Shown here: positions 5,403 through 33,312 of the stretch, in pieces
Layout of the letters: each line of letters starts with the position of its first letter
Numbering within the stretch: the stretch's first letter is position 1
NCBI GenBank assembly: GCA_964187785.1
Contig: OZ076409.1
Location: forward strand, 77,006,001-77,070,000
Direction: 5' to 3'
From: Amphiscolops sp. MND2022
Lineage: Eukaryota
Length of the DNA stretch: 64,000 nt
Position numbers and translations under genes: made by a program
Notes under the pieces: model-generated
What the model was told of the DNA's origin: nothing
Seen by the model: only the letters and a program-made list of their open reading frames with translations
Databases searched by the model: none

Positions 5403-6119
5403 TTATTTACTAACGGTTGTTAGAGGACTTCCGGTTCCTTCGTTTCTTCTCGCGGTGGTTTTCATCTTTGATATGACAGGGAGATACAAGGGCTCCATGG
5501 AGTAATCGTTGGCAAGAAACGCATAACACGTAATGTCATGAACATTTAGGTCAGGGTAATCACCGTTCAATTGATTCACATATTGTTCGTTTCTTAAGCT
5601 ACTCTTTGCGTTAAGGTTTCGCTGAACTTCGGAATTTGGTTCCGGTCTCTCGGCCGGAACGTCCCATCCCTTTCTGATCCTGTGTCCTGGTTCGGCCATT
5701 ATAACATTTTGGATTTGAGGAAGTACTTGAGTACTTATCGCGTCGTTTATGGCTCTCTGTATTTGGACACTTACGGAATTCATCATCTCATCCATTTCCC
5801 GTGAAATACGAGAGTTCAGTTCGCTAGACAATCTGTTTATTTCAGCGCTAGAATCACCTGTGATAGAATTGCGATCACACTCGGCATTCATCCTAGGTTC
5901 AACATTTCCCCTGGGTCTACTTCCGTTCCCGTCCCCATTGTCAGACTCATTACTAGCAAAACTCCTAGACCTCCTAGGTAAATTGCTATTCAGGCTACCT
6001 TCTCTTTCTCGTGCACCAAAATGGTTTTCGCCTAACATGATATCCAGATTTTCAATATCTGATAACATCTCAAGTCCTCTAGACTTTCGCGCTTTCTTTT
6101 GCTTTCTAGTGGTAGGCAT
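5403..6119 (-). CDS. LTR-encoded Gag N-terminus (195 aa) fused to flank-derived tail
   Basis: Near-identical to the first 195 aa of Gag at 20412, diverging exactly at the LTR end (5534). Confidence 0.7.
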   Translation of the reverse strand: MPTTRKQKKARKSRGLEMLSDIENLDIMLGENHFGAREREGSLNSNLPRRSRSFASNESDNGDGNGSRPRGNVEPRMNAECDRNSITGDSSAEINRLSSELNSRISREMDEMMNSVSVQIQRAINDAISTQVLPQIQNVIMAEPGHRIRKGWDVPAERPEPNSEVQRNLNAKSSLRNEQYVNQLNGDYPDLNVHDITCYAFLANDYSMEPLYLPVISKMKTTARRNEGTGSPLTTVSK

Positions 6120-7394: not shown

Positions 7395-8088
7395 CTGCCG
7401 GAGTAATAAAAAGAAAACAGCCGGCGTTAAGTCCGTTCTCGTACGCTTCCTTCCTAAGCCTGGTGATGTGCTCAGGCTCATCTCTGGGTGTGGATCGCTG
7501 CATGTACCATTCCACCTTCTCGTTCTTGATCGAGTCCACTGAACGGCCGCAAACCATGCATCCCGTATAAGGCACCGCACTGACATTTTGATAGGGCACT
7601 GTGTTTTGCACATGGTAGGACGCATGGAAGTTACTCGTGATTGACTGTGCAAGGGGAGTGTCTAAGCTTGGCCCTCTCTCGTGTTCCGGAGGTGACATTG
7701 GCGATTCTAGGACGGGCATTATTGTGTTACAGAGCTCTATGCGTTTCTTTTCAATTCTCCTTGGCGGGGCATAACACATTTCCCTGTCAAAATATTTAAT
7801 GCCCAGTTTCGGTGTCGTTCCTTCTTCTACATGAGACGTACTTGGCCCTACTCTCGCTTCATCTTCAGGCTCATCCATGGTCATTATCCTGCCCCCGATT
7901 AGCACGGGACTGGAAGTAACTTCCCTTTCAATCCGGGCAATTAGCTGCTCGGTATCTGTCGAACAATCGGTCTCCCAGTCTGAGGATTCTTCTTCACTAC
8001 TGGATATGTAGATTACTGATTTGCTAGAATCATCGGACTCATATTCCTCAAAGTCAAACAACTTTCTTGAGAGGTTGAACTTACTCAT
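7306..8088 (-). CDS. Accessory ORF-X of element A (SIM-like motif, CxxC), overlaps the 3' LTR
   Basis: Homolog of 1788-2627. The ATG at 8088 (MSKFNL) matches the homolog's length; the frame is open to 8286. Confidence 0.8.
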   Translation of the reverse strand: MSKFNLSRKLFDFEEYESDDSSKSVIYISSSEEESSDWETDCSTDTEQLIARIEREVTSSPVLIGGRIMTMDEPEDEARVGPSTSHVEEGTTPKLGIKYFDREMCYAPPRRIEKKRIELCNTIMPVLESPMSPPEHERGPSLDTPLAQSITSNFHASYHVQNTVPYQNVSAVPYTGCMVCGRSVDSIKNEKVEWYMQRSTPRDEPEHITRLRKEAYENGLNAGCFLFITPAVSQAAACDGTSVTTSATGQEFVPGTLPIY

Positions 8089-8973
8089 TATTAGTTTTTT
8101 AGCGATTTTTGAAGCTGATAAGGCAACTGATTCGAGGTGAAGTTTTAGGTAGAATGAATTTATCCGATTCAAGAATTTAGCCCAGTAAGGCTTTTCCGAA
8201 GTTTCCAATTTGGCGGTTAAAACATCGGTTAGTCGTCCTGATCCGTCGTAAACTTTCCTGAATGGAATTCCATAACTAATCGGCACCCTTTGATATTTCA
8301 GTGTTTACCCCTCATCGGCGTCATCACTATGAGAGGTGTGAATGACGCTTGAATTATTAATATCAACTACACCAGTCTCAAGTGGGTAATTAACGGGTCG
8401 CTTGTAAGCAATTAACGGCATGCGTCGCAAAGTTTTCTCAAAATGGGCTTCAGCCAATCAGAATTGAGCTTTGATAAATTGTAAAATTGAATAATAAAAT
8501 GGCGGAAAATAATAATCCCGAATAATTCCAAATGGCGATAGTTTCGCCTGGAGATAATTAGGGTAATGGGACAACCCGGCAGAATAAAATAAGGCGAATG
8601 GCCTTAACCGGCCATTAATTGGATAATCTGTAGAAAGGTGAGGTTGTTCTGTGCATTTCGCTGGCAGACTCCATGCACTATTATAAATATGTAAATAACT
8701 ATATAATATTAGTCTGGTAATTTCTTCAGCCACGAACTCCAACTTTCCAATTCCTTTATTCATCTTTAATTCCATTCGAATTCTATTTATATATCAATTG
8801 TTTCCCTTACTGGGATTCTCCTAGCTGATATTCATCTTCCCTTTGTCTCTAACTCTGCTGTCGATCCCCTCTCTGCAGCACTAGGGCCCCTAACTTCAGT
8901 CCACCCACGGCCATTTCCCTCAGCTTCTTTCGCCCGACGAGAGCATTTACTGTACGAGTAACATTACGGCAAC

Positions 8974-11900
8974 ATGTCTTCCAATCCAGGTTGGTTTGAT
9001 TTTCTCTTTCTTTCAAACAAGCTTAGCTTGATCAAGGCTAAACATTGTTCACATGACGCTTCCTGTTTCCATCAACTAGACGCGTGAAAGCACGCTTCAT
9101 TCAATTTTCAAGACACTTCCGGAAGATTTCCAACGCGGTAAAATGGACACTTTTCAAGGAAGCATACCGCTAAACTTTATCTCTTTTCGTTTAGATAATC
9201 AGGCTTCTGAGATTGAGAACGCATCAAACCCTTCTGGACTGCCGCAAACAATTTCCAATGAAGGTACAGTTCCAAGCGTGGCGTACATCGCCAGATCTGT
9301 GATTTCTCCTCAAAGCGTCGAATGTGAGGTAGACGTGAATGCCTATGCAGAAGCTAAAGTGCAAGAAATGGAGGTCGAGCAGATCCAAGTACAACAACGA
9401 TCACCCACCAGTGATCCCAATTTGATGACGGCCAATCCTGAGGCTTCCACTAATGACTATGTTCCCCAGAGTTTAGTCCCCGTTCGGTCTAGCACCCCAA
9501 TACCGATGGAGACTGCTGGAATATCCCAAGCTAGCTTGCACACATTAGAGGCAGGTCTAACAGTTGTAAACAACCCTGGATCCCAATTACCTGAGCTCCT
9601 TCCTGCCACTGAAGCGGAGACCGTTGTTCCGCCAGTTAGGAGAACCTTGGATGACGAGGATGGCGAATCTTCTGTATATGAAGTTCCTATGCTGCCCACC
9701 CAGGAACACAAAGTCCGGTTCTTGACCGACTTAACTGAGGCTGATAAGACAACCGTGGAGGCGAGCAGTACCGAATGTCCTTCACTCTATGGAGATATTC
9801 CTGGAATGTCTGAATCTGGAAGAGAGACCAGTGAATGCCCTGACACTACCGTCCTCAGGCAGCACCAGACCGACCCACAGGCATCCACTTCTCAAGGCTT
9901 TGACGTCCAGCCTCCTGAACTTTCTGGAAGGGCACGAGCCATACTGAAAACTTATTTCGATGAGACACATGCCTTTCGGTTCCCACCAGGACAAACAGCA
10001 GTTGCCTTCACAGAGTCTCAGGTGTATCACCTGTTACGCGTCTTAAGTGACGAAACGCTTCGGATGTCACATTCTACTATGGAAAGAATGATCCTGGATG
10101 CAGTCCGGGGCAGTCCTACAATCGCCCCATCACGCACTGACCTTTTCAAATCAAGGACCAGAGCACAGACTCCTTACAGGCAAGTTGATAGCAATTCCAG
10201 CGACGCCGGGACCGGTGACTTGCCAACTACGGATTCAGAGGGACATGACACCATAGACCGGGGCACACTTGGCGACTCTTCCTCATTCGGAGAAAGCGAC
10301 AGTGCTGGCGAAATGGCCTTGATTTCGGCCTCTTTTAAAACTTCAGTCAAAACCACAGACGTCCCGATTGTTTCACCTAGAGAGCAGCCAGGAGTTATGC
10401 AGACTGGTAGTCAAGAAACTGACCGAAGCAGTCAGGATATCACTTTATCTGAGGTGAGAGAACAGTCACTGCGGTCTAAGACCAAGTTGCCGAGTAAGAA
10501 GACCCCGAAGGGCAAGAGACTACCTCAACGTGGAGTCCCAATGCGAGAGGAGTTCTTCGCAAAAATCGGTTGGACCCGGTCGTTTATCTCTGGGCCAGCG
10601 GATCCGATCCACAACCCCTTCATGGTCTGGTGTCACATTTGTAAGAAGAATTTCTCCATTAGAAGTAAAGGGCAATGGAGATACTCAGGCGCCACAGAAC
10701 TGAGAAACATCTTAGACGGGACCAGAGGTGGAGGTACGAGTATCTGAAAAGTACCGATCCAATTACGCTCAAGACCCAACACCGAGTCCGAGGCAGAAAT
10801 GCGAAGATCTTGAGCAAGATAGAACTGGCCAAGGAGCTCCCCAAGTTTATCCATGTGGAGTTAGTGGATATTGGAGAACGTTTTCCTTTCTACGAGGATT
10901 TCGTTCGAGGTAGGACTACTCCCTTGGTTACTCCCGAGTCCCGAGCAAGAACTCAGCTAAGCATGGTAGCTGATTTCATCCAGAGCTATGGCGACATCAC
11001 CATCCTCCGGAGCATGTGGGCCAAAATCAGTTCCATTACTGACCATCAAGCTTCCCTTTGCGACTTCGACTGGGGAGAAGAGAGGATGACTGTAAGTATT
11101 ATTTGCTTTCCCTTCTCACAGGACTTTTCCCTTTCTGGGTTATTAATATTTGGTCTGTGTCCATTTTAGGCAATATTCCAGCATTTCTTCAACTGCGCCA
11201 TGAGTGACGTCGCTGACCAAATTTCCAGTCTGCAATGATTTGCCTTGGAATTTGAAGACCAGGGGCCCAACCGCTTCATGTCCGTGAGGTTCTGGAAGGG
11301 TCAATATCTTTGCAAGGTCATCGCTTGTCGCAGCAGGCTACCCACCACCGACCTCACTGGAGAGTTAGGTTCCATGGCGCGACTCTTGTCTGCAATTTCA
11401 ACAAAGGCAGACGTAGTGGCCTGTTCTGGGTGTCCGGCCGACCTAATCCGGACCATAGATGAGCTCCCAACTTCAGTGCGGGCTGTTCAGAGCTGCTTCA
11501 GGTTCAACCAGCTCAATCTGTCCAAGTTGATGCACAAGAAGAACTACAGTGTCTTCGGCCACATAGACTTCTTCTCAGTGCTACGCGGCTTGGTCATCTC
11601 CCTGGGCGGGTTGACCGATGAGGACTGGATACAGCGCAGTCCCGAACTGGCCAAAGTAAGTGGGCGCTCGTATCATATTGTAGCACTAACTCGCACTCCT
11701 AAGGGTTTCTAGACGGGTTATTGCAGTGGCTCCGCCTTTTCTTTAGGCTATTTCCAAGAGCGATCTAGACCTGTCTACACTGCCCTTCTTGTGTCAAGAA
11801 CTCATGGACGAGTGGAAGTCCGTGGTCTCTTTCCTTACCGAGCACTCTCCCAAACAACTGGGCCAAGGAGTCAGAACTAGAGTAAGTGTCTCAACTCAGG

Positions 11901-13267
11901 TTTCGTCTTTTCCTATTAAACGGGGAAGTCTTGTAGTCGCACCGTAAACCTTTTGTTGCAGGTTCAGAGCTTTGAATGGTCACTCATCTGTGATGAGTTC
12001 TTTCCAGTGAAGTTGGAATTCTTCTATCACCTCATTAGTGATTGTTAGTTTGTTTTGATAGTCTAGGATTTTCCTTTTGGACCAATACACCTAAGTATCT
12101 TGTGTTTTAGACAACTCTAGTTTCTCCTCCAACTTGCATAAGGGACGTGATTCCTGCTTCTATCTTTGCGGGGAAGTTGCCCGTTACGTCTACAGACTGT
12201 GCTTCCGGTGTTATGCTCCTGATACCATCCCTCTCGAAAATTCGTGGTTCTTGCTTCTAAACTTCCAAACCAGTGAGGGGGCATTCCTCCCAGTTGATGA
12301 GTTCCTCAATCGGCTGAATATGAAGAACAAAGTTGCTAAAGCTAGTAGGCAAAAATCAGAAGGCATCCATTCTGGGAAGAAATCTGACAGGTCCGCAGTG
12401 CAGAAGACCGCAGAAACCATCAAGAATGATTTCGTCCGAGACTGCCAAAATTTCATCCAGTTCCTGATAGGGGGTGTTCTTCACCAGGCCGGACTCTGCT
12501 CTAATCTCGTTCGTGGCCTTGCTGCTTTTGACCCTTATATAATGGTAAAAAGGCCCACTGAAGTAGCGTTACGTCACTTCTACTTATTATATCGGACCTT
12601 TCAGCTCAGGTCTTGGGTCAGTCTAGCAAATGAGTCCACCTGCCGGGACGAGTACGTGGAGCTATTGGACCATCTCAAGGCTTCTTCTCTTCCTTCATTC
12701 GATGTTAGCCAGGGATCACCGGATCTTATTGATTTCCTTGTCAATCTTGACTTTATGCAGGAGCATAGTCGTCTGTTATATCTATTCAAGTTGAGTTGTT
12801 TATGCATTACGTCTGAAAGTCCTCAATACCCAACAGTACGTATTGGAACTGCCAACACTACAAGTCATCAGAACAGACTCACAGACGTGGTTTTACCCGT
12901 CCAGAGTTATCTGTCAGGGGTTCCGGACTCCACTGCCTTCTGTATCAGTGACTCTAGTTTGGCTAAGTTTTCCTTTCTTTCTGCCTCCTTCAGTCAAACT
13001 GTCTCATCTGCCTCATACGACCCCTGGACTTCCGTTGACGAGTTTGGTAGGAATAGAATTTACAAGTCCCTTCTTACGTCATATCGTTCTGCCCTTTCTG
13101 GATTAGGTGAAGTGGGCCTCGATGAGACAACGTCTTCCAGCGTTGGAGATATGCCTGCAGTAGTCCCGCCCGGTGACCGCAAACGGAAGCGCATGGAGAG
13201 GAGCAGATCCCGCTCGAGAGCCTCGTCCGTCGTCAGAGAGTCTCCTGCCGGTTGTTCTAAGGACTAA
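8974..13267 (+). pseudogene. Antisense 6-exon zinc-finger gene (hAT-transposase-like) inside element A, ~1257 aa, with one frameshift and one stop
   Basis: Phase-compatible GT-AG exons 8974-8989, 9195-11091, 11170-11655, 11747-11881, 11962-12043, 12111-13267. Finger WCHICKKNFSIRSKG-MEILRRHRTEKH. Frameshift near 10672 and TGA at 11236. Confidence 0.85.
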
Positions 13268-13510: not shown

Positions 13511-16500
13511 CTAGTATCTAAAGTCTTCTGAGTAGTTTGGGTTAGGGTTAGGCCTGAGATTATATTTCCCTCCTCTAGGGCTCAGACTTTCATTTCTAGC
13601 ATCGTTTTCAGGTATTTCGGGCACGTATTTTGTGCGTCATTTTCATTCGTCTAAATTCTTTCTGGGAGAATTTCATCATTTTTTGGTCTTTTATCCGTAT
13701 TCGGTAAAGTTTTTTCTCGTCCTTTGGGGTAAACGGCCGGATTCGGCCAATCAGATTTGCTGTTGCTAGTCGCTTCACTAGCTTCATTCCTTTTTGTGAC
13801 GTCATGATTTAATCTTTCATTCCGGTTCCGCGCCGCGTGGTCAGCGTAGTTTGTTTTGCCTCTCGTGATTATGTAATCCGCTTCATTCTCGGCTACGTCA
13901 TTTGTATTCGTTTCTGCCGCATTCGGTCGTTCGCCATTCGACATGCTGGTCGGAATAGTCTCGTTGCCTCGTGTAACTAGCTGCTCGCCAAAGTCGGTTT
14001 CCCACGTTATGACGTATAAATCATCTTGCGGAATGACAATTTCTTCGTCTGGCTGCAACTGTTGTTCTTGGAAATTGTCCTCAAGAGGCTAATTAGGGAC
14101 AAACTTTTTAAGACGAATGCGATGCAAAATTTGGGTTTTGTTCGTAGTGATCCGTCTTACTATATAGTTTTCATTTGGCAAAACCTTTTGGACTACAAAT
14201 GGTCCAACCCAACGGTAATCGCGGAATGGAATTTTTGATCCCTGATTGTCCGCTTTCGGCTGTAGGACAAAACAGTATTCGTTCTCCTTTAGTGGAGCGG
14301 CTTTTGCTTTGCGGTCGTAATATTCTTTGTACTTGATATACGAACTGCATAATGTTCTGCTTTGTTTTGTCAATCAGGATTTTTGTCCGGTTTTGGATCT
14401 CTTCAGCAAATTCGGTTGTGGGGTTAATTTGCTCGTTTGGATTATTTCCAAGCTTGTGATCCAAAATATTAAATGGAATTCTTCCATGAAATACTCTCGT
14501 TGGCTCACAACCGATGCTGGCGTGATAGCTTGTATTATGGTTCAGTACTGCTAATGGCAAGTATTTGTGCCACTGTCGGCGATATTCCCCACATGCCATT
14601 TTGAGATTTGTTTTCAATGAGGCATGAGTTCGCTCCAATTTCCCAATTGTCTGCGGGTGTTTTGTCGTTGCACATTTGAGTGTGATGCCCAAAATCTGCG
14701 TAACCTCCGCAATAATTGTAGAAGTAAATGCAGTACCTTTATCAGTGATAAGAGTAGTTGGTAGATATGAGTGTTTAGTCATAATGTCAATGAGCGCTTT
14801 TGCTACATTGATCGCTGATGCGTCCGTAAGGGGATAGGCGAACAAATATCTGGAGAATACATCAATTGCTGTTAAGACGTTTTCATATCCTCCACTTGGT
14901 GGAAGATTCGGCAATAGGTCTATTTGCATGGCGTCTTCAGGTCCGAGGTCCCATTCGGGCAAGTTAAGCAGCTCAGGTGTGATCGTTGCGTTAGGGACTC
15001 TTTTGTCTCTGGCACATTGTTCGCACCCTTCTACCCACTTTTTGACGTGTTTAGCCATGCTAGGGTAGTAATACCTCTGTCGAATTTCCTGCAGCATTTT
15101 TGAAATCCCAGGATGTTTATGCGCTGTCCCGTGAAGAGATTGGAGCAATTCTTGGAGTAAATGTTGCGGGAGTGAAATTTGATGGTATTTCACATTCCCT
15201 GATTCATCGAAATATTGCCTTGTCAGGATTTCGTCCTTTAGTACAATTCGTTCCAGATTGTTTGCGTAATGTCTATATCGGGCATCCTGGTGCAGTAGAT
15301 TTTCTGAATACTCTTCATGAAGCAGTTTTGCTTTCAGTTGTTGTAGTACCGCATCTTTGGATTGCTCGATAATGATCTGGTTCGTTTTCCTCAATCGGAC
15401 TTGTATATCGGGGTGTTGCTTGACCAGATTTGTTGACAGAATTTGTATAGTAACAGTGGGCTCATCAGTTGCTGGATTTTTCCTGATTGCTTCTTTTCTT
15501 GCCCAAAACTGTTCTTCTGTCTCATCGTCGTCATCGGTGTAGAAGATTTGTTCTTCCTGCGACACCCCTGCGGATTGGACATTGATTTCGATTGGTAGTG
15601 TCTGTACGTCTTCACGAATTTTCATCACCAATTTGTCCTTTGGATCTGCTTCCAATCGGGACAAATAGTCGGCGGCTGTATTTTGTGCCCCTGGGATGTG
15701 TGCTATGACAAAATTGAATTGAATGACGTAATCACACGCGTTCCACAGGGCTTGGGGTATTATTTTCGTTTGGAAAAATCTCGTGACAGCTTTGTTGTCC
15801 GTAATGATGATGACCGGTTTCGGCGCACCCCAGAAGATATGTCCGAATTCTTTGAATGCAAAATAAATTGCAAGGAATTCCTTGGCATAAATTGACATTT
15901 TGATCTGTGCTGGGGTGAAAGTTTTTGATCCGTACGCGACTGGTGCATACGATTTTCTGAGTGAGGTAAATTTCTGGCTTGGGTCGTCTTCGATTAGGAC
16001 CGCGTACCCGGCTGCACCAAAACTTGCATCAGTCATTAGTGCTATTTGTTTGTTCGGAATGGGTTGTTGTAGGGCCAGGTCGCAACATTTGTCTAGTGCT
16101 CTATTGATTTCTTCGAATTGTTGGACTAATTCTTTCGATACTAGGACCTTTTCGTCACTTTTGAGCATCTTGTAGAATGGAGCAAGGCGTTCGGAGAGTC
16201 TTGGGACATAATTCCTGTAATAGTTTAGGAATCCCAAGTAGCGCTGTAAAGCCTTTTTCGACTTCGGGAATTTAGTCTTTTCCAGAAAGTTTTGCACATT
16301 CTGTTTCTGGGGTTTGACGCCTTGTGGGGTAATAGTCCGTCCGAGAAAATCGATTTCTTTTGCACCGAAGTGACATTTGTGCATTGTTAACTTAAGGCCT
16401 GCTTCCTGAATGCATTTGAATGTAGCTCTCAGGTTCGTCATGAGGTGGTCAACATCATTGGCTGCGATGCCAATATCGTCCACATACTGGGCACACTGAT

Positions 16501-18697
16501 CCGCTTTGATGACTTTGTCAAGGTATTCCCTCATGAAACTCGAGAATGCGGATAGTGACCGACTAAGGCCTTGTGCCAAACGTCTGTAGGCGAATGTGCG
16601 ACTGGCAAAATTGAAAGCCAACATTTCGATTGAACGTTGGTCAGCCATTGGTAGGCAGTGGTATGCCTGCGAACAGTCTAATTTACAGAACAGTTTTTTG
16701 CCTGCCAAATGTTGGGCGGCATCAACTAGTGTACTGACGGGATGATTGTTGTTGATATAATCATCCGAGATGAGGTTGTTGATTTTTCTCAAGTCAACCA
16801 AGAGTCGGAGTTTCCCGTTCGGTTTCTTTTGTGCCAATATTGGGCTCGCGTATTTCGAAAATGGCAGTGTAGTTATTATGCCATATTTGTGTAACATTTG
16901 TGGCTAATTCGACTAGGATGTCCTCCTTCAGATTGATAGGAGCTGGAAGGCTTTGACTATAGGCTGGGGAATCGTCCTTAGGTGTCAGTTTCACTTTGAA
17001 TTCCTCGTTCATGCCTATATCAAATCGGTGTCGTGCAAAGATGTCATAGAATTCCACTAACAATTCCTCAATTTTCTCCTTCTCTTCAGGAGTAAGGGTG
17101 GAATCTTTCCAGTCAAAGTTTTCTAAGAATTTTGCACGCGATTCTGCATCTGTGGTGGGGTCGAGTGTCTCCAGGTCCTGTAAGGCCTGTAACTCGCGTA
17201 GGATTCGTTTTTGTATAGGTGTGTGTTCCTCAGGATTTCCAGGGTTTTCTGGAGTTGGGAACCAATAATTTTCGGAGTTTTGTGGATTTCTATTGGTTTT
17301 GATGAGACTGCTGACATAATGGGCTGCTTGCTCCTGGTCATTCTGCAAAAGGTGCCAGGTTGATGCCGGGTCTACCAGTTTGACATACTTCATCTGTTCT
17401 GGCGTCATGACAGAGAAATTGGCAATATGTAGTCCCTTTTTGAGTTTATAAGGGTGGTCTGTGAAGTTGCTCACTGGTATCGATATATTGCCGTCATTCA
17501 GAGTGACCAAGGCTGGGCAGAATGTGATGTCGCCTTCTTCATGTAGGAGGTCGCTCGGTTGCAAAATCCCAGTGACAGCATTTTCAGGGTATAGTAAGGA
17601 ATTAGTCCGGATTAGGACTCTGTCATTTGGTGGAATGGTTATTTCAGCAGGGTTGAGGATTGGTTCAAGTACGTTTGAGTACTTATGGTCAGCTGTTTTG
17701 AGCTGCATTGAAAAGAACGGGAAATTCAAAATTCCTTGTCTCATGTCCAGTACTGTATGATTTCGTTGAAGGAACATTAGTCCAATGATCGGTCCCGTCA
17801 GATGTTCCATCACTATGAAGATTTAATGGAACTCAATGTCACCAACTTCGAATTTGAGCTCGATGGTACTCTTAGGAGTTTCCAGTTGCCCATTAGCGAC
17901 CATGATTTGGAAATTCGGAGGCGGACCTTCCCGGATAACGGATTGTGGAGATAAAAGTCGAATTTTCCGGAGGTCCATTTCAGGAATTGCACTGGACAGC
18001 GCTCCAGTGTCAATAAGTCCATCTATGGTCAATTCCCCAAAGTCCATTGGGAAATACAACATGCGTTTTTTGCATTTGAGGTTGATGTTGGTTGACAGGG
18101 GTATACAGTCTGGTTCACCGTCTCTGGTGATTAAGACATTTTGGAACTGTTTTTCGTCTAGCAATGATTGTGGTATGGGTTCAATGTTGCTGTCATGGGT
18201 CTCAGTCCCCAATGGGTTTGGGAACACTGGATGGTTTGTGCCATCATTCTTTTGCCAGTTTTCAATTAGCGCTCTTGTTTTCTTGTTATGGGTAATTGGA
18301 GGGTTCTCGTGGGCTGTTCTATTATAATGTTCAGTATCGTCCAGAACATATTGAAATTGCAGTAAATCTTGGTTGTAAAGCTCGGTGTCCCAGTAGGGAT
18401 CTCTGCCGTAGTCTGGATCGATGTATGTCGGATTGTAATCATCGATTAGGGGAATGGGCCTGAAGCGGGTGGTGAAGGTAGTGGTGTAATCAGGGTCCCA
18501 AACAGGAATTGGTTTCTGGAATAAATGGGTGTTATTGTAGGTGATGATGGTAGCTTTTTCCATCTGTTGCTGCCAGACAACAGAGGGATAGCCCATCAAT
18601 TGCTGATTGTATTGGTGGAAAGTTTGCGTTGGAGGGTCCGATCTGATGTATTGTCGGACAGATATTAGTTCGTTATATTGGAGTCGTGGCGAAGTTA
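13511..18697 (-). pseudogene. pol: pol of element A (protease, RT, RNase H, integrase), frameshifted
   Basis: LIDTGA protease, YVDD RT, TDAS RNase H, H-HPG-CxxC and D..D..E integrase, WVGPF motif; split over several ORFs. Confidence 0.95.
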
Positions 18698-20412
18698 GTT
18701 TTTTGACTCATCATTAGGATATGAGGATTGGGAGCCCGATGATGTCGGTTTGGTCTGAGGTTTCTGAGCCTTTGGATTGAAAAGTCTTTATTCTCAGTTG
18801 AGTCCTCAGGTCTAGTGCGTTTGGGTTTAAGATGTGCACCAGCAACTTGCCAACATCGTTCTTCCGGGTGGTTCTTTTTGCCACAAGTGCCACACTCCGG
18901 GTATGTTTTCTTCTGCGTTGACTTGCCTTGTTGGGCATCTTTCTCTTTTTCTTTTTCAGTTTTTCGCAGTCTTTGACCATGTGGCCTTTTTCCTTGCAAT
19001 AAGTGCAAGTAATGTCTGACATTTGCCCAGTGGACAGAGGAGTTTTAGATTTTGTAGTCGAGGAGGTCATTGTGGCCTATTGGTAGGTCATCTGATTCCT
19101 CAAGGGCGTTGAGTTCCAACTCTCTCTCCAAATGAGCAACAATTTCATCATATGAGCCATTTTCTAGTCTGGCCATGTTGACAGACCGCTTCAACTTAGG
19201 TGGCAATTTTGCATAGAGCAAGCTGTCAATCATTTTCTGTGCATGATCACCAAACGCCTTCTCGGCTCCCTGGTTTAATTCTTCGAGAAAATCAGGCAGC
19301 TTCATCGTATTGGGATCGAAGACTAGGCGGTGCCATTTATGTTTGGCAGTCGCCTGTGACTCGGGTTTGACGTATTTCCGTCTAAAGATGACTAGTACGT
19401 CCTCTAGAGTTTGTCGGTTGCTTGAGCTGATATTTCTGAACGTCTGAAGAGCATTCTTCCTCAATAAAGAGTGGAAGTGATTGATCTTCATTTGCTCAGT
19501 CATTTCTGGCTGCATCTTGATCATAGTGTGAAATAGGTCTTCGAACAGCTCGAATTTCTCACTTTTGCCATCGAATGTCATGGTATTTGAGTTGACTGGG
19601 CGTATGGTGAGTTGTTGGGCTGTCAGTCTAATTTGCATTGTAGTCAAGACGTCTGCCAGTCGGGTGATGGGGTCGGAGTCAGCAGCCGTAGCGATTCTCT
19701 CTTGTGCTGGGATCGTCGTGTCGAGGTTGATGTCCTCAAAGGACCTGTCGAGATGATTTCGGGATGAGATGCGTCCTGAGAGAAACTCAGGAACTGGATT
19801 TGTAGATTCGTTGTCTCCTGTCACCATGTCATGAACATTTAGGTCAGGGTAATCACCGTTCAATTGATTCACATATTGTTCGTTTCTTAAGCTACTCTTT
19901 GCGTTAAGGTTTCGCTGAACTTCGGAATTTGGTTCCGGTCCCTCGGCCGGAACGTCCCATCCCTTTCTGATCCTGTGTCCTGGTTCGGCCATTATAACAT
20001 TTTGGATTTGAGGAAGTACTTGAGTACTTATCGCGTCGTTTATGGCTCTCTGTATTTGGACACTTACGGAATTCATCATCTCATCCATTTCCCGTGAAAT
20101 ACGAGAGTTCAGTTCGCTAGACAATCTGTTTATTTCAGCGCTAGAATCACCTGTGATAGAATTGCGATCACACTCGGCATTCATCCTAGGTTCAATATTT
20201 CCCCTGGGTCTACTTCCGTTCCCGTCCCCATTGTCAGACTCATTACTAGCAAAACTCCTAGACCTCCTAGGTAAATTGCTATTCAGGCTACCTTCTCTTT
20301 CTCGTGCACCAAAATGGTTTTCGCCTAACATGATATCCAGATTTTCAATATCTGATAACATCTCAAGTCCTCTAGACTTTCTTGCTTTCTTTTGCTTTCT
20401 AGTGGTAGGCAT
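18695..20412 (-). pseudogene. gag: gag of element A (zinc knuckles, frameshifted in 3' part)
   Basis: Retrotransposon Gag core (TFDGKSEKFELFEDLF), knuckles CTYCKEKGHMVKDC and CGTCGKKNHPEERC; slippery A AAA AAC (18704-18698) just before TAA. Confidence 0.9.
19815..19826 (-). other. Primer binding site TGGTGACAGGAG (tRNA-Leu-like, inferred)
   Basis: Immediately follows the LTR-terminal CA; the same 12-mer follows the LTRs of B and D. Confidence 0.85.
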
Positions 20413-21684
20413 TAAGACAGAACCGGGTTGAATAATTCAATTATCAAAACCGGAAAACTGACAAAAGTCGTTGTATTAATTCAATCTTTATCAAAGTAAA
20501 GGTATGGGATTTGTGTCCTTTTTTACAGAAATATAGCTATATATACTCCTAAAAAGATGACACTCACATTCCACAAATTCTTTGATCAAGAAAACATCAT
20601 ATGACTATGGCCTCAACGGGTCATGTGACAAGTGTTATTACAGCATCGGGTAGGGTGTTCAACACTTCAAAGCAGATATTTTAGGGTGATGTCCCGATTG
20701 GGAAAATTCCTAGTTTCAGGGTAGTCCTTAGGAATTCAACATCAAAAGAATGATATTTAACAGGGTACACAAGCAGCACCTTCAAGTGTCGTGTTTATAA
20801 ACATCATCAACATCATCCTGTCAACAAATACCAATGTCTATTGAAGGAATGCAAAAGGCATCTCTTCGGAATGTGCTTGTGGCACGCGTTACCACGCGCC
20901 TATTATTCAACGTGAGTAGGAACTAGATTAAATATTACATGATCAGTTCTGCTTAAAATAATACAGCATTATTAAAATAACACACTTTCTGACAATGCCG
21001 AAGATGGACAAATCCGGTTTATTAATTCAGCACTGTAATAAAAGAGGGAAAAAGCCTTATTCGGCTTTTGAGTGAGTACTAGGTTTATTAAGCTCATTGC
21101 GCGGCATTGGGGCTTTCATTCATTATTAAGAGTACATTTACAGTAATTTACGATTAGTACACCCAATTAACACACATACAGGCTATTCCAACGAAGTGGC
21201 CGGAACCGGCCGTTTGACTAAAAGGCACAATTATTGAGTCAATTGGCCATACTCGGCCATTACATAATCAAAGTGGTATTACTTATAGAAAAGGAGCAAC
21301 GTGATTGGCTAAGGAGTTGAGCTCAAGTGACGTCTCCGAAATAGGAGTTTCGTTCACTTGAACTCGTTTCCTTTCTACTGTACAGCTACATTGTCACGTA
21401 TTACGTTTACAATAGCAAAGCGCCTTTCAATCTTTTGAAGTTACAAATACACTATTTGAATCTTCAAATGTGACTTTTAACAGACTAATTTTACAATTGC
21501 AAGTATATATATATCGAAGCTAACAACATCAACAAACATATTACGTATTGAATAACAAAACAGTATGAAAGTTCTAAGTTTGTAAATTATCCCAATTAAT
21601 AAATGGGTAATGTTCCGGGTACGAATTCTTGTCCAGTTGCCGACGTTGTCACACTCGTACCGTCACAGGCGGCAGCCTGCGACA
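19827..21684 (-). repeat. 5' LTR of element A (1858 bp)
   Basis: Direct repeat of 5534-7394, followed by the PBS. Confidence 0.95.
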
Positions 21685-23268
21685 CGTAACATGATTGACT
21701 GAGACATGTTCTGGCTTTAACGAATCATATTTGTGTTTGTTTGGAACTACCAGGAACATTAGGAATTTCATTACCTTGTTTTCTACTGTAAGGTAATTCG
21801 ATTCCATTCTAGTAAGGATTGCTTTTCTATTTGATCTATGCTAACTTATTGCTTTTTGTCAAGTTTTTTTCGTATATTCTTGTATAATTGACCGAATGAA
21901 GTTTTTGATGTTTGGATAGTTCGTTTTACAAGATCGGTACTACATCCAATAATACTTTTCATACCATTTTTTACCTGTAAAGTCTATTTTCATGCCTTTT
22001 TCGAGTCTTTGAGTTTGTATACAGTGACTTGAAATATCTAGGAGCTGTTCCGTTTTTGTCCTGGGTTCTTATTTTCTTCTGTTCGAAACTTCAAGCGATT
22101 TTTGCATTGTTCGATGAGCCTGGTTATCGTCGTCAACGATATGGGTTCATTGTGTAGTTATTGTATAGTCATACTTTTGTGTTATTACTTGATGAACATA
22201 AACACAAATGCAGCAACGAAAGACAAATAATTGATATTGTACAACGCCAAAAATAAAAAAGTAAAATCTGTTGTCAGTATAGTTAAATACAATAGATTTC
22301 CTATATATCCCTGTTCACAAGCCCCAAATTTGAGAAATTAATTCGAGGCTTTAGATCAAAAAGTGACAAAAAATGAAGCAGCATAGTTATAACGTGAAAG
22401 TTTTGGAAGCATCCAAGACTGAGATAGAGATCATAAATGTTGGAAGAAGTTTTCAAATGAAATTGTGTTTGAACGATTAAAATAGGCATATTCTTCGAAT
22501 ATTTACAGTCTTTTCTCAACATCGAGAGTTTAATCTCACAAAATACTCTTGTTGAGCGTCAATTAGAATAGAATTGAGCGACCTGTGCAGTAACAAGATT
22601 GGTCGAAAAAAAAGTTTCCCATAGCTGAAAAATAAGAATAATATTTTTTGCATGACATTCTTGAGAAATGGAGAATATAATTTTTTCTCCGAATAACTTT
22701 GTCCCTACTCATATCGCTCAATGCTAATCCAATTGACCCTTAAAATGACTATTTTGTAAGATTGCTTTCAATTCATTTCTTTTGCGAAGTTCATGATGGG
22801 ATTATCATGTAACATTTTTGAATCATTGCATTGTTTTCTGTTGTCCTAGTATCGTTAAACATTCATACTGAACAATCCTCATTATTTCATCATCAATTAT
22901 GTTTGTTTTTCTGTTAGTTGATTATTATAGATCTAAGTTCAGCTTTCAACTATTTTAGTGGGTGGCATAAAGAAGTATCTCGTTTCAATCTTGGTAATTT
23001 CAAGTCAGTGCAGTTCATGGAAACAAAAACTACATTTTGCCATCAAGACTATAAGATAAACGAGTTTTTTGAAGATTGTATTGAATCAGCTTTGTTGACT
23101 CCGAAATTTATCATCTAATTTTGGCAAAGATACGATTTTATTCTTTTAAAATTTTAACTTTAAACTTGTTTTTATAACTTTTTCAAAAATTCAACTGCAA
23201 CCTTTGTTTTTATTTTTGAGCAACCGTGACTGCACTGCTGAAATGTTTAGTTGCGAGGCCCTCAGAAG

Positions 23269-24294
23269 ATGTCGATCGGAAACTCTAGACATGATTTGTC
23301 TTATTCGGATCATTCTACTGCATCAGCCTTGAGCCCGGGACTAACAACACGGCGTTCTCGAGGCATGTACCAGAAACAGACGTTCACTTTCGAACACTCC
23401 GAAAAACGAGATTCCGAGACAACCACGCAGTCAGAAGTTATGTCATCCTCAAGAGGTCAAAGGGTTAGAGCCACATCATCAAGTGCCCACTCAAATGAAA
23501 GTTTCGGCGAGTCGACCCGGAGTCTCACTTTACCCAGAAAACCAGAGGGAGAAACGATCAATAAAAATTGGATCAAGATATTGAAAGATAACAATCAACA
23601 ACCGGAAGATGATCCAAGAAAAGATATGATGAAAAAGTTGATAGACAAAAGATTTGGCCTTGAAACGAATCATGAACCAGTGAAACGGAGAGCACGACGT
23701 GCAAGAACTAGAACAAGTTCTTCTATTTCCAGCAGTGCCGCCACCGGTGACGAAAATATACCAGACGAAAATGAGGAAAAACTGCAACGAAGTGTTTCAA
23801 ATGTCGACATTTCAACAATTGCGCTACAAGAGGATGAACAGCTGGAACAGTCCAACTTGGTTCGCAAAACAGAAAGCTGTGATATAGTTCCTACATCTGA
23901 CTATATTTCACAGAGAATGGTTGTGCCCAAATATGACGAAAGCGAAAGAGAAAGCTCAGAAGAAGTGAAGGTTCTGACATCCCCCGAAAACTCAACCAAA
24001 GTTTTAGTCACGACAAACCGAAGCACTGAAGATATAACTAAGAGCGCAAGTCCTAATCAAATAGTTATAAATATTTTATCTTCGAACCCAGAGAATTCTT
24101 CAGCAACAAGTATCAACGTAGTATCTGAAGCCAATGGTGTTACCAACGTGTATGTTGGCACAATGCCAGCGGTTGTTGCGCCGAATGATAGACCAGTGAT
24201 TACGTCAGAACCAGAGGCCGTTGAAGTGAGCGACAAAAAACCATTGATGGATCAAAAGGAAGAAAAGAAGAAAAAATGTTGTTTCTGCTTCTAA
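23269..24294 (+). CDS. Probable host gene or terminal exon: Ser/Thr/Glu-rich disordered protein ending KKKKCCFCF
   Basis: Intact ~341-codon ORF with no TE motifs, in AT-rich flanks; possible splice acceptor at 23250. Confidence 0.6.
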   Translation: MSIGNSRHDLSYSDHSTASALSPGLTTRRSRGMYQKQTFTFEHSEKRDSETTTQSEVMSSSRGQRVRATSSSAHSNESFGESTRSLTLPRKPEGETINKNWIKILKDNNQQPEDDPRKDMMKKLIDKRFGLETNHEPVKRRARRARTRTSSSISSSAATGDENIPDENEEKLQRSVSNVDISTIALQEDEQLEQSNLVRKTESCDIVPTSDYISQRMVVPKYDESERESSEEVKVLTSPENSTKVLVTTNRSTEDITKSASPNQIVINILSSNPENSSATSINVVSEANGVTNVYVGTMPAVVAPNDRPVITSEPEAVEVSDKKPLMDQKEEKKKKCCFCF

Positions 24295-27200
24295 CTGTAA
24301 TTTTTCTCAGATCATCAAATCAAACAATTTAAAAAATAGTTCATCTCACTTGAAAATTAAAGATATCCGTAACTTTTAGTACTGAAAAACTGAAACGTTT
24401 GAGATTTTGATCATGGAGTATAAAATGTATGGATAATTTACTTCAAATATATGAGTGAAATATCTTGAGAGGTGAAAATACTTGCGTGTCGAACTGAGGT
24501 ATTTAGGATGAGACAAAAAAACCTCGACAATTTTTTTGCACAAAAGCCAAAAACATTGAAGTTCGCAATCGGAAAAAAATTATAAGTATAGTTTTTATAG
24601 ATTGCTTCGGCAAAAAATTAAAGAACAAAAATCTTTCGAATTTCGATAAGATTTACAACGGCATTTTCCGTTTTGAGATCAAAGAAAAGTTAAATAACAG
24701 CATGTTTGTAGATTATGTCATATTTCGAAATTATCATGCAGTTTCTAGTAAATCGCTTGTCGTAACTAAAAATTCCGGAAACAACTTTTGTAGCCAATAT
24801 TCTTTTCAACGCACCGCTTTTTCTGGAAACCATCTCATCTATAATGCTCATGAGCCAAAGGAACATGGAGTAATATCATTTTGTGCACAAAATGATATTA
24901 CTCCATGTCTGTTTTGACAATCAACGCAGTTTTTGACTGAGATTTTAATATCAGAATCAAGGCTACAAAATGTGTTCTTTTCTACGATCAGTGTTTTCGA
25001 GATGATGTATGATAAAGTTCAGCAAGCCGGGAACGGCATAAATCGGCGCCCTACTTAAGATTCAAAAATAGCAAAAGGACTTCAAAGCGTCAAGTATTAA
25101 TACTTCTTAGCGCGTCAATTTGGTTCCCCTTTGAGTTTTTCAGGTACTGTGGAAAAGAATTCTTTTCCACAGTACCTGAAAAACTCAAAGGGGAACCAAA
25201 TTGATGCGCTAAGAAGGGGGATCCTTTGTGATTTTTAACATCAATTCTGTTGCAAAATACCAGAAAAATGAAGTTGAGACACTTTAGAGGCATTAAAAAA
25301 TTTTCGAAAAAAGTCTGATAGTGCCGAAAAAATTTCAAAGGGGGACCCTTTAGTCTCGTCGGATTTTGTATGTTTTGCTAAAAAAAGAACAACTTCTATA
25401 GTTCAGTTCCCTGCGTGTGGTAGGTGCTAGACAACTAACATTACATAACCTAAAGCTAATGTGAGAAAAACAATAGTGTGAAATACTTTATTACGTAACA
25501 TATTAACAACCTGCCAAATTATGCCAAAGTGGCAAAATAACATCTATTGCCATAAATTGAAATACCGTCGAATTTACAGTTGCTATCATATTCTTCTTTA
25601 CTTCCACTCCTGAGTCGTAGTCGTTAACATGGCGCTGCGAGCAGCTGATGATGATCAATCAAATGCCCCAGTCCCTGGACTGAGTTATTTCTGGCAAGAT
25701 GCCGAAAAATCCCCTTCGTACAACTGGGACCAATGGCTGCAACTATTCGAGGTAGCAGTGTTGGCCCGTCACTCAATTTCCGTCTCCGAATTGACAAGAA
25801 ATGCAGAACAGCAACCCCGGGCCCAAGCACTGATGGGAAACATGGAGGAAGCCCCTGCAGCAAGAAAAGTAATTAGTATACTGTACATATCATTGGGAAA
25901 AACGGGCAGAAAAATGCTAATGGACAAGTTCCCCCAGATCAATATCCTACTGATCCAACTACAACAATTTCTCCAATATTGTAACGAGTGTTTCCAAATA
26001 CGTCGAAACAGAACGATGGACAGACATACCTTCTTGTCGCGAAAACAGAAGCCATCGGAATCACTACACCAGTACTGGAACGTCCTCAATGGATTAGCAG
26101 CCAAATGTGATTTTGGTAATCAAACAGAAGGTTTGGTGTACGACGTGTTTGTTCTGAATATGGCGAATAAGCAGGTGCAGGAAAAGCTGTGCACGGAGCC
26201 CAAAGAGACCCCGGCAGAGGCACTACAATTCGCCATTGCATTTGAAGACGGATTGAAAAGACAGAGAACATACGGCTACAATGGAAATGAGACGAAAATC
26301 AAAGAAGAACCAGTTTGTGCAATAAGTGGTAACCGACAGAATACAAAAGAATGTTGAAGAAGCGGTGCCGGTAATTTTACAATGGACCATTTAAAAGTCT
26401 GCAAAGGACCAAATGCGACATGTAATTACTGCAGCAGAAAAGGCAACTTGGAGAAAGTTTGTAATCAAAAGAAAAAGGATATTTTACAGCAAAGTGGTAG
26501 ATTCAGAGCAAGTGGCAGTAGTGAGCAAATAAACCGCCGCGTCCGATTGGTCGATCAGGAAGAAGAGGAGGACGATAATTTCTTGGTTTTGAACGTAGAT
26601 GGCCAAAATGAAAACATTAAACCGTATTATATGGAAGGGTTTATTAATGGGAATCGCTTCAAAACAATGATCGACTCAGGGTCGCCAGTAACCAATTTCG
26701 CGCTAGATGAGATTAAACAGATCATGCAAAGAGAAAAATTACAAGTGCGCCAGATGATTAAAAGCGAGTGGTACATGGATTTCAACGGGAAGCCGTTGAA
26801 TTTGCTGGGATACGTTTTCTGTGAATTACAAGTGGGGGATCAATATAATAAAAAGGCGAGAATCCTAGTCACAAAGAGTGGTACAAAATCGATCATCGGC
26901 AGAGATTGGTTGTCAACGTTGAAATATACAATTGCCCCAGCTAACAAAGGTGAGTGTGAAGTTAATTCAAATGAAAAAGAAGAAGAACTAAGTACGGAAA
27001 CCAAGCAATTTTGTAACGAATTTCCAAAACTGTTCAAAAGAAACGGGAAGATAAAAGATCACGAAATCAAAATAAAGCTAAAACCGGATGCAAAAATTAC
27101 GCAACAAAAAGGGAGAATAATCCCAATTCAACTACAAAACGCGGTAGATGCGGAAATAAAACGATTACTAAAAGAAGGCCATATAGAAAAAATTAACGAA

Positions 27201-27846
27201 ATCAAGGACGACGTATTTATACAGCCAACAGTAATAACAGTGAAGAAAGACCGTTTGGTAAAAATCGCGTTGGATGCAAGAGCGCTAAATCAAGCCATTG
27301 ATAAAGATAAATACCAAATGCCGAACCTTGATAACTTGTTAGACATGGTAGCTGAAAAGCTAGATAATGAAAAAGGTGAGGCATGGGATTCATCGGTTGA
27401 TATGACATACGCATACGGTCAAATTCCACTACATTTGCTAACAGCGAAACACTGTAATTTTCAAATTATCGGCGGAGAATCAACGGGGACGTATCGGTTT
27501 GTAACAGGTTTTTATGGTCTGACGGTTATGCCGACAGAATTTCAAAAAGTTTGTTATTAGCAAAATTTAGAGAAGTGTTTGTCTTTATCGATGATATTTT
27601 AATTGTAACCAAGGGAAACAAAGCTGAACATTTGAACAAAGTGCGGGAAATTCTAAAAGTGCTAGATGAAGCAGAACTACAATTAAAGGCGGGAAAATGC
27701 AAAATTGCTAAACAAGAAATCGAGTGGTTAGGGTTCAAGTTGACAAGTTCAGGCATTTCGCCAATAAATTCGAAAGTACAAGGAATTACAGAAAAACTCA
27801 GACCAACGAATTTGAAAGAACTACGATCGTTCTTAGGCGCAGTGAA

Positions 27847-28287
27847 TCAATTCAATAGATTTGTCCCAGATTTGGCTACAATTTGCTTTCTGTTACGACA
27901 TGCCAACGAGTCGTTTTGAGTTGAACTTATTCTCACTGACTTTGTAGGGGTATAAAAGTTTCTTGTTTCCTCTTCTACTTCTTCCTCGGTATTCTCCCTA
28001 ATGATTCCCCTTGTTTCAGGTTTCAGGAGTTTCAACATCTCCTTCTGAGATTCGACAAGAAGATTCTTAATTTCTGATGTTATTTCCTCTTTCAAGGAAG
28101 CCCTTAAACTTTCTAGGAGGCTGTTTTCAATCCGGGGGGATTTTGAGTTAGAAGGCCCCGCTACCTCATCGTCCTGGTTTAAGGAACAAGGATTTCCTAC
28201 TACTATGGGTGAAATCAAGCCTTCACTTACGTTCTCATTGGTGCTTTGCTGATCATTCCTTCTTTTCTGGCTTCTTGTTGTTGACAT
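27847..28287 (-). CDS. LTR-encoded Gag-N-terminus-like ORF in solo LTR C
   Basis: MSTTRSQKRR basic start and coiled-coil segment; 132 codons + 1 nt to the LTR end, the same phase as the other families. Confidence 0.7.
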   Translation of the reverse strand: MSTTRSQKRRNDQQSTNENVSEGLISPIVVGNPCSLNQDDEVAGPSNSKSPRIENSLLESLRASLKEEITSEIKNLLVESQKEMLKLLKPETRGIIRENTEEEVEEETRNFYTPTKSVRISSTQNDSLACRNRKQIVAKSGTNLLN

Positions 28288-31057: not shown

Positions 31058-33312
31058 TGTCATGCCAGCATGATGGAAATATAATCTACTAAATATCTGT
31101 AATGTGAATATTATGTCTTATGTACTTAGATATGGGCAATATGATGTCATATAATAAGAACCATGGTTGTGAGCAACCCTACGTTACTTATACTTAGTCC
31201 CCATTCCCCCATGAGTTTGAGTTATATATATTTACTTAATACTGAGCGCTCTAGTTCCGGTGTCCGCATAAATGATCTCGCCAAATAGTCTCGAATGTGC
31301 TATAATTCATAAATATTGGTTTGTCACGACAAGGGAGAGAAGTGTTCCGGTCAAACTGGACCGAGAGATGTAGAAACGATGAAAGCTGTAACTTCTACTA
31401 GCTCCCCGCCTCAGGACTTGTAGTCGTGACAACACTTTCATGAAGTTCATGGCTAGTCCATCAGCGGACTTAACGATGAACCCGAATTGATTGATAAATT
31501 CATTAGATCCATCAGCGGATTTAATTTGGAGCTATTTTGAATGAAGTTCATCGCAATTTCATCTCCAGAATTGCATATGAACAACAATTGGGACGTTAAA
31601 CAGACTTTACATCACTAATCCATCAGCGGATTTTATGTGACCTTATTTTAGTAATTTCATCTTAAATTCATCGTTGTATTTCATGTACAGAAATTTCAAT
31701 GTGCTTCTCATTTCTTAAAGGACAGTAACCCATCCTTTATTCATCGTATTCACTAGCGTAGAAGGGAAATAGGGAAATGAGAAAGTACATCCTTAATCCA
31801 TCCTAAAAAAGAGTGAAAGTGCTGGTTATCTGATTTGCTTATAAAACCCATCCTTAATTCATCTTGATTTCGTTTGTGCTGAAAATTAACCATTTTAGTG
31901 GATGAGTTCATCCTAAACTCATCGCTAAATTGAATTGCCTTAGTATTCGGTGTTTTAACTGGTGAGTTCATCCTAAACTCATCGCCAATTTGTATTGTTT
32001 TGGTATTTGCTGTTTTAACTGACAAGTTCATCTTAAACCCATCGCCAAAAATTCACTTGTGCTAGAATTAGCGTTTATCGACTGAATTCATCCCGAATTA
32101 ATCGTCATTTTAATCTGTGCTGGAAATTGGCAAATTATACGTGGAGTTCATCCTTTTATCATCGTCAGCTTAAATTGTGTTGATTTTCGAGCGAGAAAGA
32201 CCACCATTCATCGCATTTTCATCCAGAGCTAAACTAGACTTGAAAATCAACAAATATTCTTACAAGTTCATCGCATTTCCATCTTCAATTTTTAAATCAT
32301 TGGTTTTGGCGCTAGAATCAGCGGAAAACATCGTTTTCCCATCCCGAATTGCGCTTTATCTTAAATTGACTTGAAATTAGTGCGTTTTTGAATGATTTGA
32401 GCTCATTTTAGTTGCTATAGAAACCATGATGCTGCGTGCAGGCAATTGCGACATTGTAAATTGATGACTAAACACCATTAACATATGTAGATGTACCGTG
32501 ATGCGTGGCCACTTTGCGGCAGTTCACAACACCGGTCACGTGACTTACCATTTTAACACCAGCTGGTAACAGCCAATGAGAGAAGGTTGGTAAGAGATTT
32601 AGCGTCTTACCAACCGAAAAGACACGTGAACTGCTGTAATTTGGACCGCCATTAGCGATTACTCAGACCGAATTGCGACAAGTTACCATCCAGTTGAATA
32701 GTTCACGCCAGAATTCTACTTGAAAATATATCCCCATTTCATCTTCAAAACTATAGAACTGAAACTGAGTAATTTCCTTGGTGCATTTATGATTGCGATG
32801 AAAACTGGATGAACTTTCCTAGCTACCTTACTAATTTCCTTGTTCTCACCTAACGATTTACTTGATTGTACGACTTCATCTCTAAAACACCTCAGTTCAG
32901 ATTAGTGAATTTGGGATCGAATAAATACTTGAATCAGTAAAATACTTCGAACAGCATCTCAGATAATCCAGTCTTCACTCATATTTCTTTTCTCTCAGCT
33001 ACATGAACCCAGACCAAGGTACCGAACTTAGAAGTGGTAGGGTTATAAATTCTTCGTCAGAAACATCTTCTCCAGCAGATCCAGACATGGCTCAGGCAAA
33101 CTCAAATGATTCTGACACCAACGACAATTCGGATATCTCTTCTCAGTTATCTGAAATAAAGGAAATTTATGAACGCCGAATTAATGAGTTACACCAGGAG
33201 TTTAGTCAACTGAAGGACCTAATGATGGCGATTGTAAGCAAGAATAATAACGAATCTCAGCCTTCTAGCTCAAAAGGTCCTTCAAAGCCGACCCAACAGC
33301 AAGGGTTCGACA
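31058..33312 (+). repeat. 5' LTR of element B (2255 bp)
   Basis: TGTCATG...TCGACA, repeated at 47944-51994. Confidence 0.95.
31549..32343. repeat. Array of 14 CATC-N7-CATC sites; nine at exact 60-bp period
   Basis: Sites start at 31549, 31610, 31658, 31731, 31788, then every 60 bp from 31849 to 32329 (32089 has one mismatch). Confidence 0.92.

Follow-up and report, generated by a model that had tools for sequence, protein, structure and literature searches.

A nest of LTR retrotransposons

The stretch of DNA analysed here, a window of 64 kb from a genome of 1.07 Gb, is a nest of large LTR retrotransposons from five families, which we call A, B, C, D and 0. Their main parts are as follows.

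21684 to 5534, minus strand: element A, its two LTRs 99.1% identical, with the TSD TTACG at 21685-21689 and 5529-5533
19827-21684, minus strand: 5′ LTR of A, 1858 bp, with TG...CA ends
19045-20412, minus strand: gag ORF of A, with a premature end; its capsid region lies 3′ of the primer-binding site (PBS)
14171-18707, minus strand: pol of A, in the order PR-RT-RH-IN (Pfam)
5534-7394, minus strand: 3′ LTR of A, whose gag-head copy (5403-6119) continues into flanking DNA
31058-51994, plus strand: family B element, with LTRs at 31058-33312 and 47944-51994 and the TSD GTTGG
30375 to 27891, minus strand: solo LTR of family C, 2485 bp, with the TSD GAAAG
57063-58582, plus strand: 5′ LTR of family D; the element extends past the window and its second LTR lies in the neighbouring stretch L033
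2542-4169, plus strand: 3′ LTR of family 0; the 5′ LTR and PBS lie to the left of the window, in L031

The copy of A in the window is broken, with a gag of 455 aa against 570 aa in intact relatives and a pol in three pieces. The pol domains follow one another in the order RVT_1, RT_RNaseH, Integrase_H2C2 and rve (Pfam), which is the Ty3/gypsy type, and the best PDB match of pol is Ty3 Gag-Pol (E 8e-46). Integrase lies 3′ of RNase H and hence not before RT, as it does in the Pseudoviridae (Ty1/copia), and no match to the BEL-type Peptidase_A17 was found among the Pfam results for the ORFs of the window. Metaviridae traits are present in the two TG...CA LTRs with a TSD (5 bp in A and B; the solo LTR of C also has one), in a gag with retroelement capsid and nucleocapsid, and in a PBS complementary to the 3′ end of a host tRNA. 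The canonical layout of the family, a descriptive trait comprising a non-coding LTR and a U5 of 75-250 nt, is absent, although the length of U5 here is one that we infer. At the position of the polypurine tract before the 3′ LTR, which lies inside an ORF, there are short G-runs in 0 and B, a weak candidate in D and no clear one in A. The elements are a Ty3/gypsy clade with a Ty1-like layout that has been stretched to a whole protein domain.

The window holds further features besides. In the B LTR there is a 60-bp tandem repeat of 2.5 copies (31901-32049 and 48765-48913) with a 92-aa antisense ORF over it; the 3′ LTR of B also carries a 571-bp insert that is present twice via a 909-bp tandem duplication (48840-50992), and the 571-bp piece occurs a third time at 53196-53766. 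Long antisense ORFs with no Pfam match lie between pol and the 3′ LTR in A (9080-13267, plus strand) and in B (42234-46107, minus strand). The solo LTR of C was inserted into an unrelated broken gag-pol (25614-27890, plus strand), which we take to be Mag-like. A 341-aa low-complexity ORF (23269-24294, plus strand), also with no Pfam match, ends in a basic cysteine-rich tail, KKKKCCFCF, whose composition suggests membrane anchoring.

The gag frame starts inside the LTR and runs through the primer site

In each of the five families an open frame occupies the end of the LTR.

19828-20412, minus strand: LTR-coded gag head of A, 195 codons, free of stops, where the two other sense frames have 15 and 26
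19815-19827, minus strand: terminal A of the LTR plus the 12-nt PBS of A, read as ATG GTG ACA GGA
33003-33324, plus strand: B head and PBS, 103 codons in the LTR, from the ATG at 33003 to the LTR end at 33312
27891-28287, minus strand: C head, 132 codons, in the solo LTR
58012-58594, plus strand: D head and PBS, 190 codons in the LTR, from the ATG at 58012 to the LTR end at 58582
3608-4169, plus strand: 0 head, 187 codons, in the 3′ LTR

A preliminary description of this DNA had placed the start of Gag deep in the LTR with read-through of the PBS, and this is borne out, with 100-200 LTR codons in all five families; the ATG-to-LTR-end distances that it gave (586 nt in A, 310 in B, 397 in C, 571 in D and 562 in 0) are exact. 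There is thus a start codon within the LTR and an open frame across the PBS, as in the Ty1-type layout, and in A the frame reads ...VHD-MVTGD across the junction. The in-frame ATG GTG ACA GGA (MVTG) was described for A, B and D, where it is indeed found, but its restriction to those three does not hold, since 0 and C have it also: the PBS adjoins the 5′ LTR of 0 (in L031) and the LTR at 13 of 30 C-family loci. Beyond the window, the ATG lies at 586 nt in 28 of 30 A-family loci, the other two being disrupted by small deletions; the PBS is present in 22 of the 30, and 14 of these read at least 570 aa. For family C the ATG maps to 397 nt in 29 of 30 loci. When 30 PBS loci were picked by the PBS motif alone rather than by protein similarity (the first 30 along contig 1), at least 100 codons were open upstream in the A|TG frame in 24 and in neither of the other two frames in any (0/30 each), with intact-looking LTR heads of up to 215 codons.

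The shared phase of 3n+1 in the five families is real, but does not amount to five separate instances. Identity among A, B, D and 0 is 63-94% in RT stretches, and among A, B, C and D it is 28-45% in the post-PBS Gag; in addition, the TGA within the PBS (TGG TGA) closes one of the three frames. Given this common ancestry and the closed frame, the phase is best counted as one inherited layout. The heads of different families are scarcely alike, with a best E of 1e-4 apart from A and 0.

The LTR ends in CA and is followed without a gap by TGGTGACAGGAG, a complement, over 12-13 nt, of the 3′ end of a tRNA-Leu(CAG) gene with CCA added. The PBS 12-mer occurs 7,993 times in the genome, against 65 for a control, and 7,527 of these occurrences stand directly after CA. 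The tRNA-Leu(CAG) 3′-end pattern has 1,009 genome matches, and ARAGORN called a tRNA at one of five loci tested (L070). Near 35.59-35.64 Mb of G000:C8 the tRNA-Leu 3′-end pattern forms a dense tandem array with units of about 230-300 bp; the confirmed tRNA gene at L070 is located outside this array.

The LTR-coded head is under purifying selection

For the A clade, 104 loci were reduced to 85 with intact gag, to 18 clusters at 94% identity and finally to 17 representatives, L015 being left out for an aberrant C-terminus. Among these copies, which were chosen by protein search and open frame, which recombine and whose pairs share history, codons 1-195 give a pairwise dN/dS of 0.15 (bootstrap CI 0.13-0.21; 119 of 136 pairs unsaturated), and the head of the closer 564-aa group gives 0.12. 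The LTR-coded part gives 0.14 in D (23/23 loci), 0.17 in B (20/23) and 0.16 in C (11/13). Neutral evolution of the LTR segment would have refuted the preliminary description; values of 0.12-0.17 in four families contradict neutrality, and the LTR-coded head is under purifying selection in all four. Within the A-clade head, selection is concentrated in two blocks.

20323-20412, minus strand: basic N-terminal block, codons 1-30, dN/dS 0.02-0.05 (about 0.03)
19984-20145, minus strand: predicted long helix or coiled coil, codons 90-143, dN/dS 0.03-0.11 (about 0.05)

In both blocks dS is about 1 and dN 0.02-0.05, and third positions hold 85% of the differences in codons 1-30 and 68% in the coil. 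The two spacers of the head are variable, at 0.28 and 0.46 (range 0.15-0.46), and the capsid gives 0.01-0.04. Met1 is invariant in 17 of 17 representatives and the length of the head changes by whole codons only (568/586; 571-586), while the non-coding LTR 5′ of the ATG can be aligned between most A-clade subfamilies only in short islands.

Within the coding U5, synonymous sites are unusually conserved at gag codons 151-170 (about 19900-19965, minus strand; GAGAGACCGGAA...TCCGAAG), 75-135 nt before the LTR/PBS junction. This conservation is likely to mark a cis-acting signal; a common fold was sought at codons 146-172, and no single structure was found across the 17 copies.

The transcript likely begins upstream of the LTR ATG

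Upstream of the gag head of A lie three further features.

20538-20545, minus strand: TATA box of A, 133 nt upstream of the ATG
20413-20512, minus strand: ATG-free stretch of A, likely the 5′ leader and likely, at a putative position, R
21298-21374, minus strand: conserved island with a CCAAT box, common to otherwise poorly alignable subfamilies

All 85 intact A-clade copies, which comprise 10 distinct upstream types, have a TATAWA between -121 and -144. In 0 the motif stands at -143, and 12 of 13 C loci have it between -155 and -158; further upstream, bins covering -200 to -900 contain it in only 0-3 of 14 sequences. Its position is not fixed in D, where 10 of 23 copies have none within 300 nt and the others have it at -90, -177 or -279 to -298, and it is mostly absent in B (present in 4/20). 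The last 100 nt before the ATG hold one ATG in 14 sequences, each an upstream type, against about 19 expected, and an ATG at -78 to -82 occurs in 11 of 85 A-clade copies. The TATA box and the ATG-poor leader thus suggest that transcription begins before the LTR ATG, which is likely in A, 0 and C. Transcription from near the CCAAT island would begin 700-1000 nt upstream, with 15-26 ATGs in between, and this idea was dropped in view of the TATA box near -135; to judge from its conservation, the island is likely an enhancer or promoter in U3.

Assignment of the U3/R/U5 borders requires RNA data, according to a survey of LTR structure (PMC3601003). In the simplest reading, a leader of about 100 nt would be followed by a short R and then by a long coding U5: U3 would end near -105, R would lie around the leader and the first codons, and U5 would comprise some 500-590 nt of coding sequence. 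We found no conserved AATAAA that would mark the end of R; an AATAAA inside the head was rejected as a poly(A) signal, being at the A position in only 2 of 17 copies, and a conserved 3′ splice site at -45 was rejected as it is not common to the subfamilies. Directly before the ATG stands a 45-nt imperfect palindrome flanked by CCGG (20413-20460, minus strand), which is kept in several otherwise unalignable upstream types. A candidate hairpin before the ATG has z scores of -2.2 to +1.2 and is absent in the L071/L113/L116 group.

The head may act as a matrix-like domain

The preliminary description had the head as mostly a basic start plus a coiled coil. Families A, 0 and D show a clear basic start, each with seven K/R in the first 20 aa; it is weaker in C (four) and B (two). 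"Mostly" goes too far for A, where the two blocks make up only about 40% of the head and the rest is variable and modelled without confidence. The helix at 90-142 is predicted at a pLDDT of 69-78 in a family member and is the only part taken from the model of full-length Gag, whose mean pLDDT is 39; a dimer prediction for the coil scored 0.02 and gave no usable answer. A search of the ESM Atlas gave no usable match for the head and a search of viral contigs no relatives; 18 metagenome loci were dropped as relatives, a zinc knuckle being their sole match.

For the capsid region the nearest solved relatives are PNMA2 and dArc, with a profile E of 0.003 and Foldseek E values of 1e-3 to 5e-2; its top fold matches are all retroelement capsids, none of them at E<=0.001. 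Among 22 gag members, Pfam finds DUF1759 in 11, Retrotrans_gag in 9 and Ty3_capsid in 6, and the D gag contains zf-CCHC. N-terminal coils occur in Gags of the Arc and PNMA types, and by analogy with these the head here is likely a matrix-like N-terminal domain, in which the basic start, a flexible spacer and the predicted coil would provide contact with RNA or membrane and multimerisation.

A second coding overlap at the U3 end

The other end of the LTR also carries codons, as an accessory ORF runs into it from upstream.

7306-8304, minus strand: accessory sense ORF of A, which continues across the PPT position to a stop within the 3′ LTR and has no Pfam match
21598-21684, minus strand: first 29 or so LTR codons of A, corresponding to the C-terminus of the accessory ORF, which is read in the 3′ LTR copy

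A frame of shared phase crosses the PPT position into U3 for about 29 codons in A and in 0, about 13 in B and about 16 in D. The accessory ORF is long in A (7306-8304, minus strand) and in 0 (1737-2627, plus strand), carries a CxxC and a ..CDG motif and ends inside U3; the same phase and motif recur at the B junction (about 47944, plus strand) and the D junction (L033, about 7683). The first 27 LTR codons of 17 A-clade copies, a set from which L002 was left out for a frameshift and two loci because they have no LTR start, give a pN/pS of 0.25, with 65% of differences at third positions. On sequence grounds, then, there is a second coding overlap, at the U3 end of the LTR.

Mosaic copies suggest exchange of heads between subfamilies

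Sliding comparisons reveal mosaic copies, the clear cases being few, with breaks in two places, the PBS and roughly +10 to +75 of gag. L133 and L002, for instance, are 93-100% identical over the 1 kb upstream and share 89-100% in the gag body, yet in the head the figure falls to 52-77%. One of the head types is found with four upstream types. Since U5 is copied first and then changes template, subfamilies would exchange the head as a unit, which is the pattern of the mosaics. Of the LTR recombinants in the plant element Onsen, most are consistent with a switch at first strand transfer (PMC5668417). The breaks fit what is expected of intermolecular first strand transfer if R lies at the start of gag, and they fit equally a homology-driven switch in the most conserved stretch. 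One subfamily (L071-L100) has at least 30 copies that are 99-100% identical to P0116 with gag open, and has thus expanded very recently.

One long Gag and its alternatives

Our preferred explanation, which we hold with high confidence, is that the first 100-200 codons of gag lie in the LTR and read on without a change of frame across the LTR end and the tRNA-Leu PBS, that the RNA likely starts about 100 nt before the ATG, and that the product is likely one long Gag. Selection acts at the protein level and the frame runs through the primer site, and the LTR is thus likely translated; the head and the post-PBS part would be made as a single long Gag from the LTR ATG. The contrary idea treats the stretch as non-coding U5, with an open frame that is either a relic or maintained by DNA or RNA signals, and has Gag start at the junction ATG. 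It could draw on the variability of the two spacers (dN/dS 0.15-0.46) and on the local nucleotide constraint near codons 151-170 and the PBS, but the concentration of differences at third positions in codons 1-30 and the coil, the low dN at a dS near 1 and the restriction of length changes to whole codons largely refute it, and we regard it as extremely improbable. Translation of the head mainly as a short product of its own, from 3′ or solo LTRs, by splicing or by early termination, with the gag frame secondary, is also very unlikely. Every 3′ and solo LTR does carry TATA box, leader and head, run-off ORFs of 196-238 aa are found at 8 of 8 such A loci, and many head-only proteins of 100-250 aa are predicted in databases; the run-off tails, however, are whatever flank comes next, selection acts during replication of the element and via the 5′ copy, and the frame across the junction has been kept in four families at a dS near 1.

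A different kind of alternative, in that it would add to the long Gag rather than replace it, is that there are two isoforms: translation would start at the LTR ATG for the long one and, through leaky scanning or an internal RNA, at the junction ATG for a short capsid-nucleocapsid form; the short form would then have a role in assembly or act as a brake in the manner of p22. All 85 intact A copies have the junction ATG, with G at -3 and +4, the context of Met1 is weak (T or C at -3 in 84/85), the post-junction part (343-411 aa where open) has the size of a whole Gag, synonymous sites are constrained shortly upstream, at codons 151-170, and Ty1 p22 is made from an internal RNA (PMC13709905). 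Yet the junction ATG consists of the CA of the LTR end and the TGG of the PBS, so that all three of its bases are fixed by the integrase (att) end and the primer site and its invariance is uninformative on initiation; the -3 base differs between families, being G, A, C or T. Several AUGs moreover intervene between Met1 and the junction, among them the in-frame and invariant Met28 and Met113, and with these in the way leaky scanning across 586 nt is unlikely. The long and short isoforms proposed in the preliminary description are thus left unsupported, the junction ATG most likely arises as a side effect of joining CA to TGG, and a second isoform seems to us improbable.

Comparison with known systems

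The principle that translation crosses the LTR end and the primer site is already known from Ty1 of S. cerevisiae, which also has a short leader and whose PBS lies inside the GAG ORF, at RNA nt 94-104 (PMC4974528); its internal-start Gag fragment p22 is the model for a short isoform (PMC13709905). It follows from the PBS position that fewer than about 31 codons of Ty1 can lie in the LTR, against 103-215 here, where they form conserved domains of their own. The LTR-coded part of Ty1 is about a dozen codons. Ty1 belongs to the Ty1/copia type (Pseudoviridae), whereas the elements here have integrase after RT-RH, and its primer is the initiator tRNA-Met rather than tRNA-Leu; the present elements are thus an unusually long Ty3/gypsy variant of the known principle.

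Among the Metaviridae, the ICTV profile describes LTRs that do not code, with 75-250 nt of U5, a PBS of 18 nt and a PPT of about 10 purines (PMC7879559). The elements here share with this canon the TG...CA LTRs, the 5-bp TSD, the tRNA PBS, capsid plus zinc knuckles and the order PR-RT-RH-IN (PMC7879559), but differ from it in that both LTR ends code, U5 is likely 300-600 nt (a length that we infer), the PBS matches its tRNA over 12-13 nt, and an ORF covers the position of the PPT, which is weak in A. PNMA2, dArc and Arc, to which the comparison extends for the capsid part alone, are host genes derived from Metaviridae and have no LTRs. ORFs that overlap U3 are found in HIV (nef), MMTV (sag), foamy viruses (bel) and the plant CRM elements (the integrase tail), and the accessory ORF here resembles these in entering the LTR from its 3′ position. 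The overlap in those systems concerns U3 only, and we know of none that also has a structural Gag head in U5. Within the one literature library searched, we found no Ty3/gypsy element with a long LTR-coded Gag head, nor was the layout found in the accessible portions of PMC5408684, PMC13524379, PMC9503155 and PMC9911081.

Implications

The clade has about 7,500 copies with a PBS in a single genome. Some 20-40% of its LTR is selected protein-coding sequence, and the integrase end and the primer site must double as codons. Minus-strand strong-stop DNA would be 400-700 nt long, and the Gag head recombines apart from the promoter and the capsid, which could speed adaptation to host defences. For annotation, a gag that is taken to start only 3′ of the PBS loses a third of the protein, and solo LTRs would look like small orphan genes.

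A more far-reaching possibility, to which we give some but limited credence, is that the LTR in this clade is a protein-coding, exchangeable module at both ends, and that its 3′ and solo copies give rise to a copy-number brake and to chimeric genes. If this is true, U5 would encode the whole N-terminal domain of Gag, with reassortment among subfamilies whenever first strand transfer takes place, and U3 would encode the tail of the accessory protein; thousands of 3′ and solo LTRs would each be a promoter, a leader and a head of 100-200 codons that can be fused to host DNA, and the head-only proteins made from them could poison assembly.
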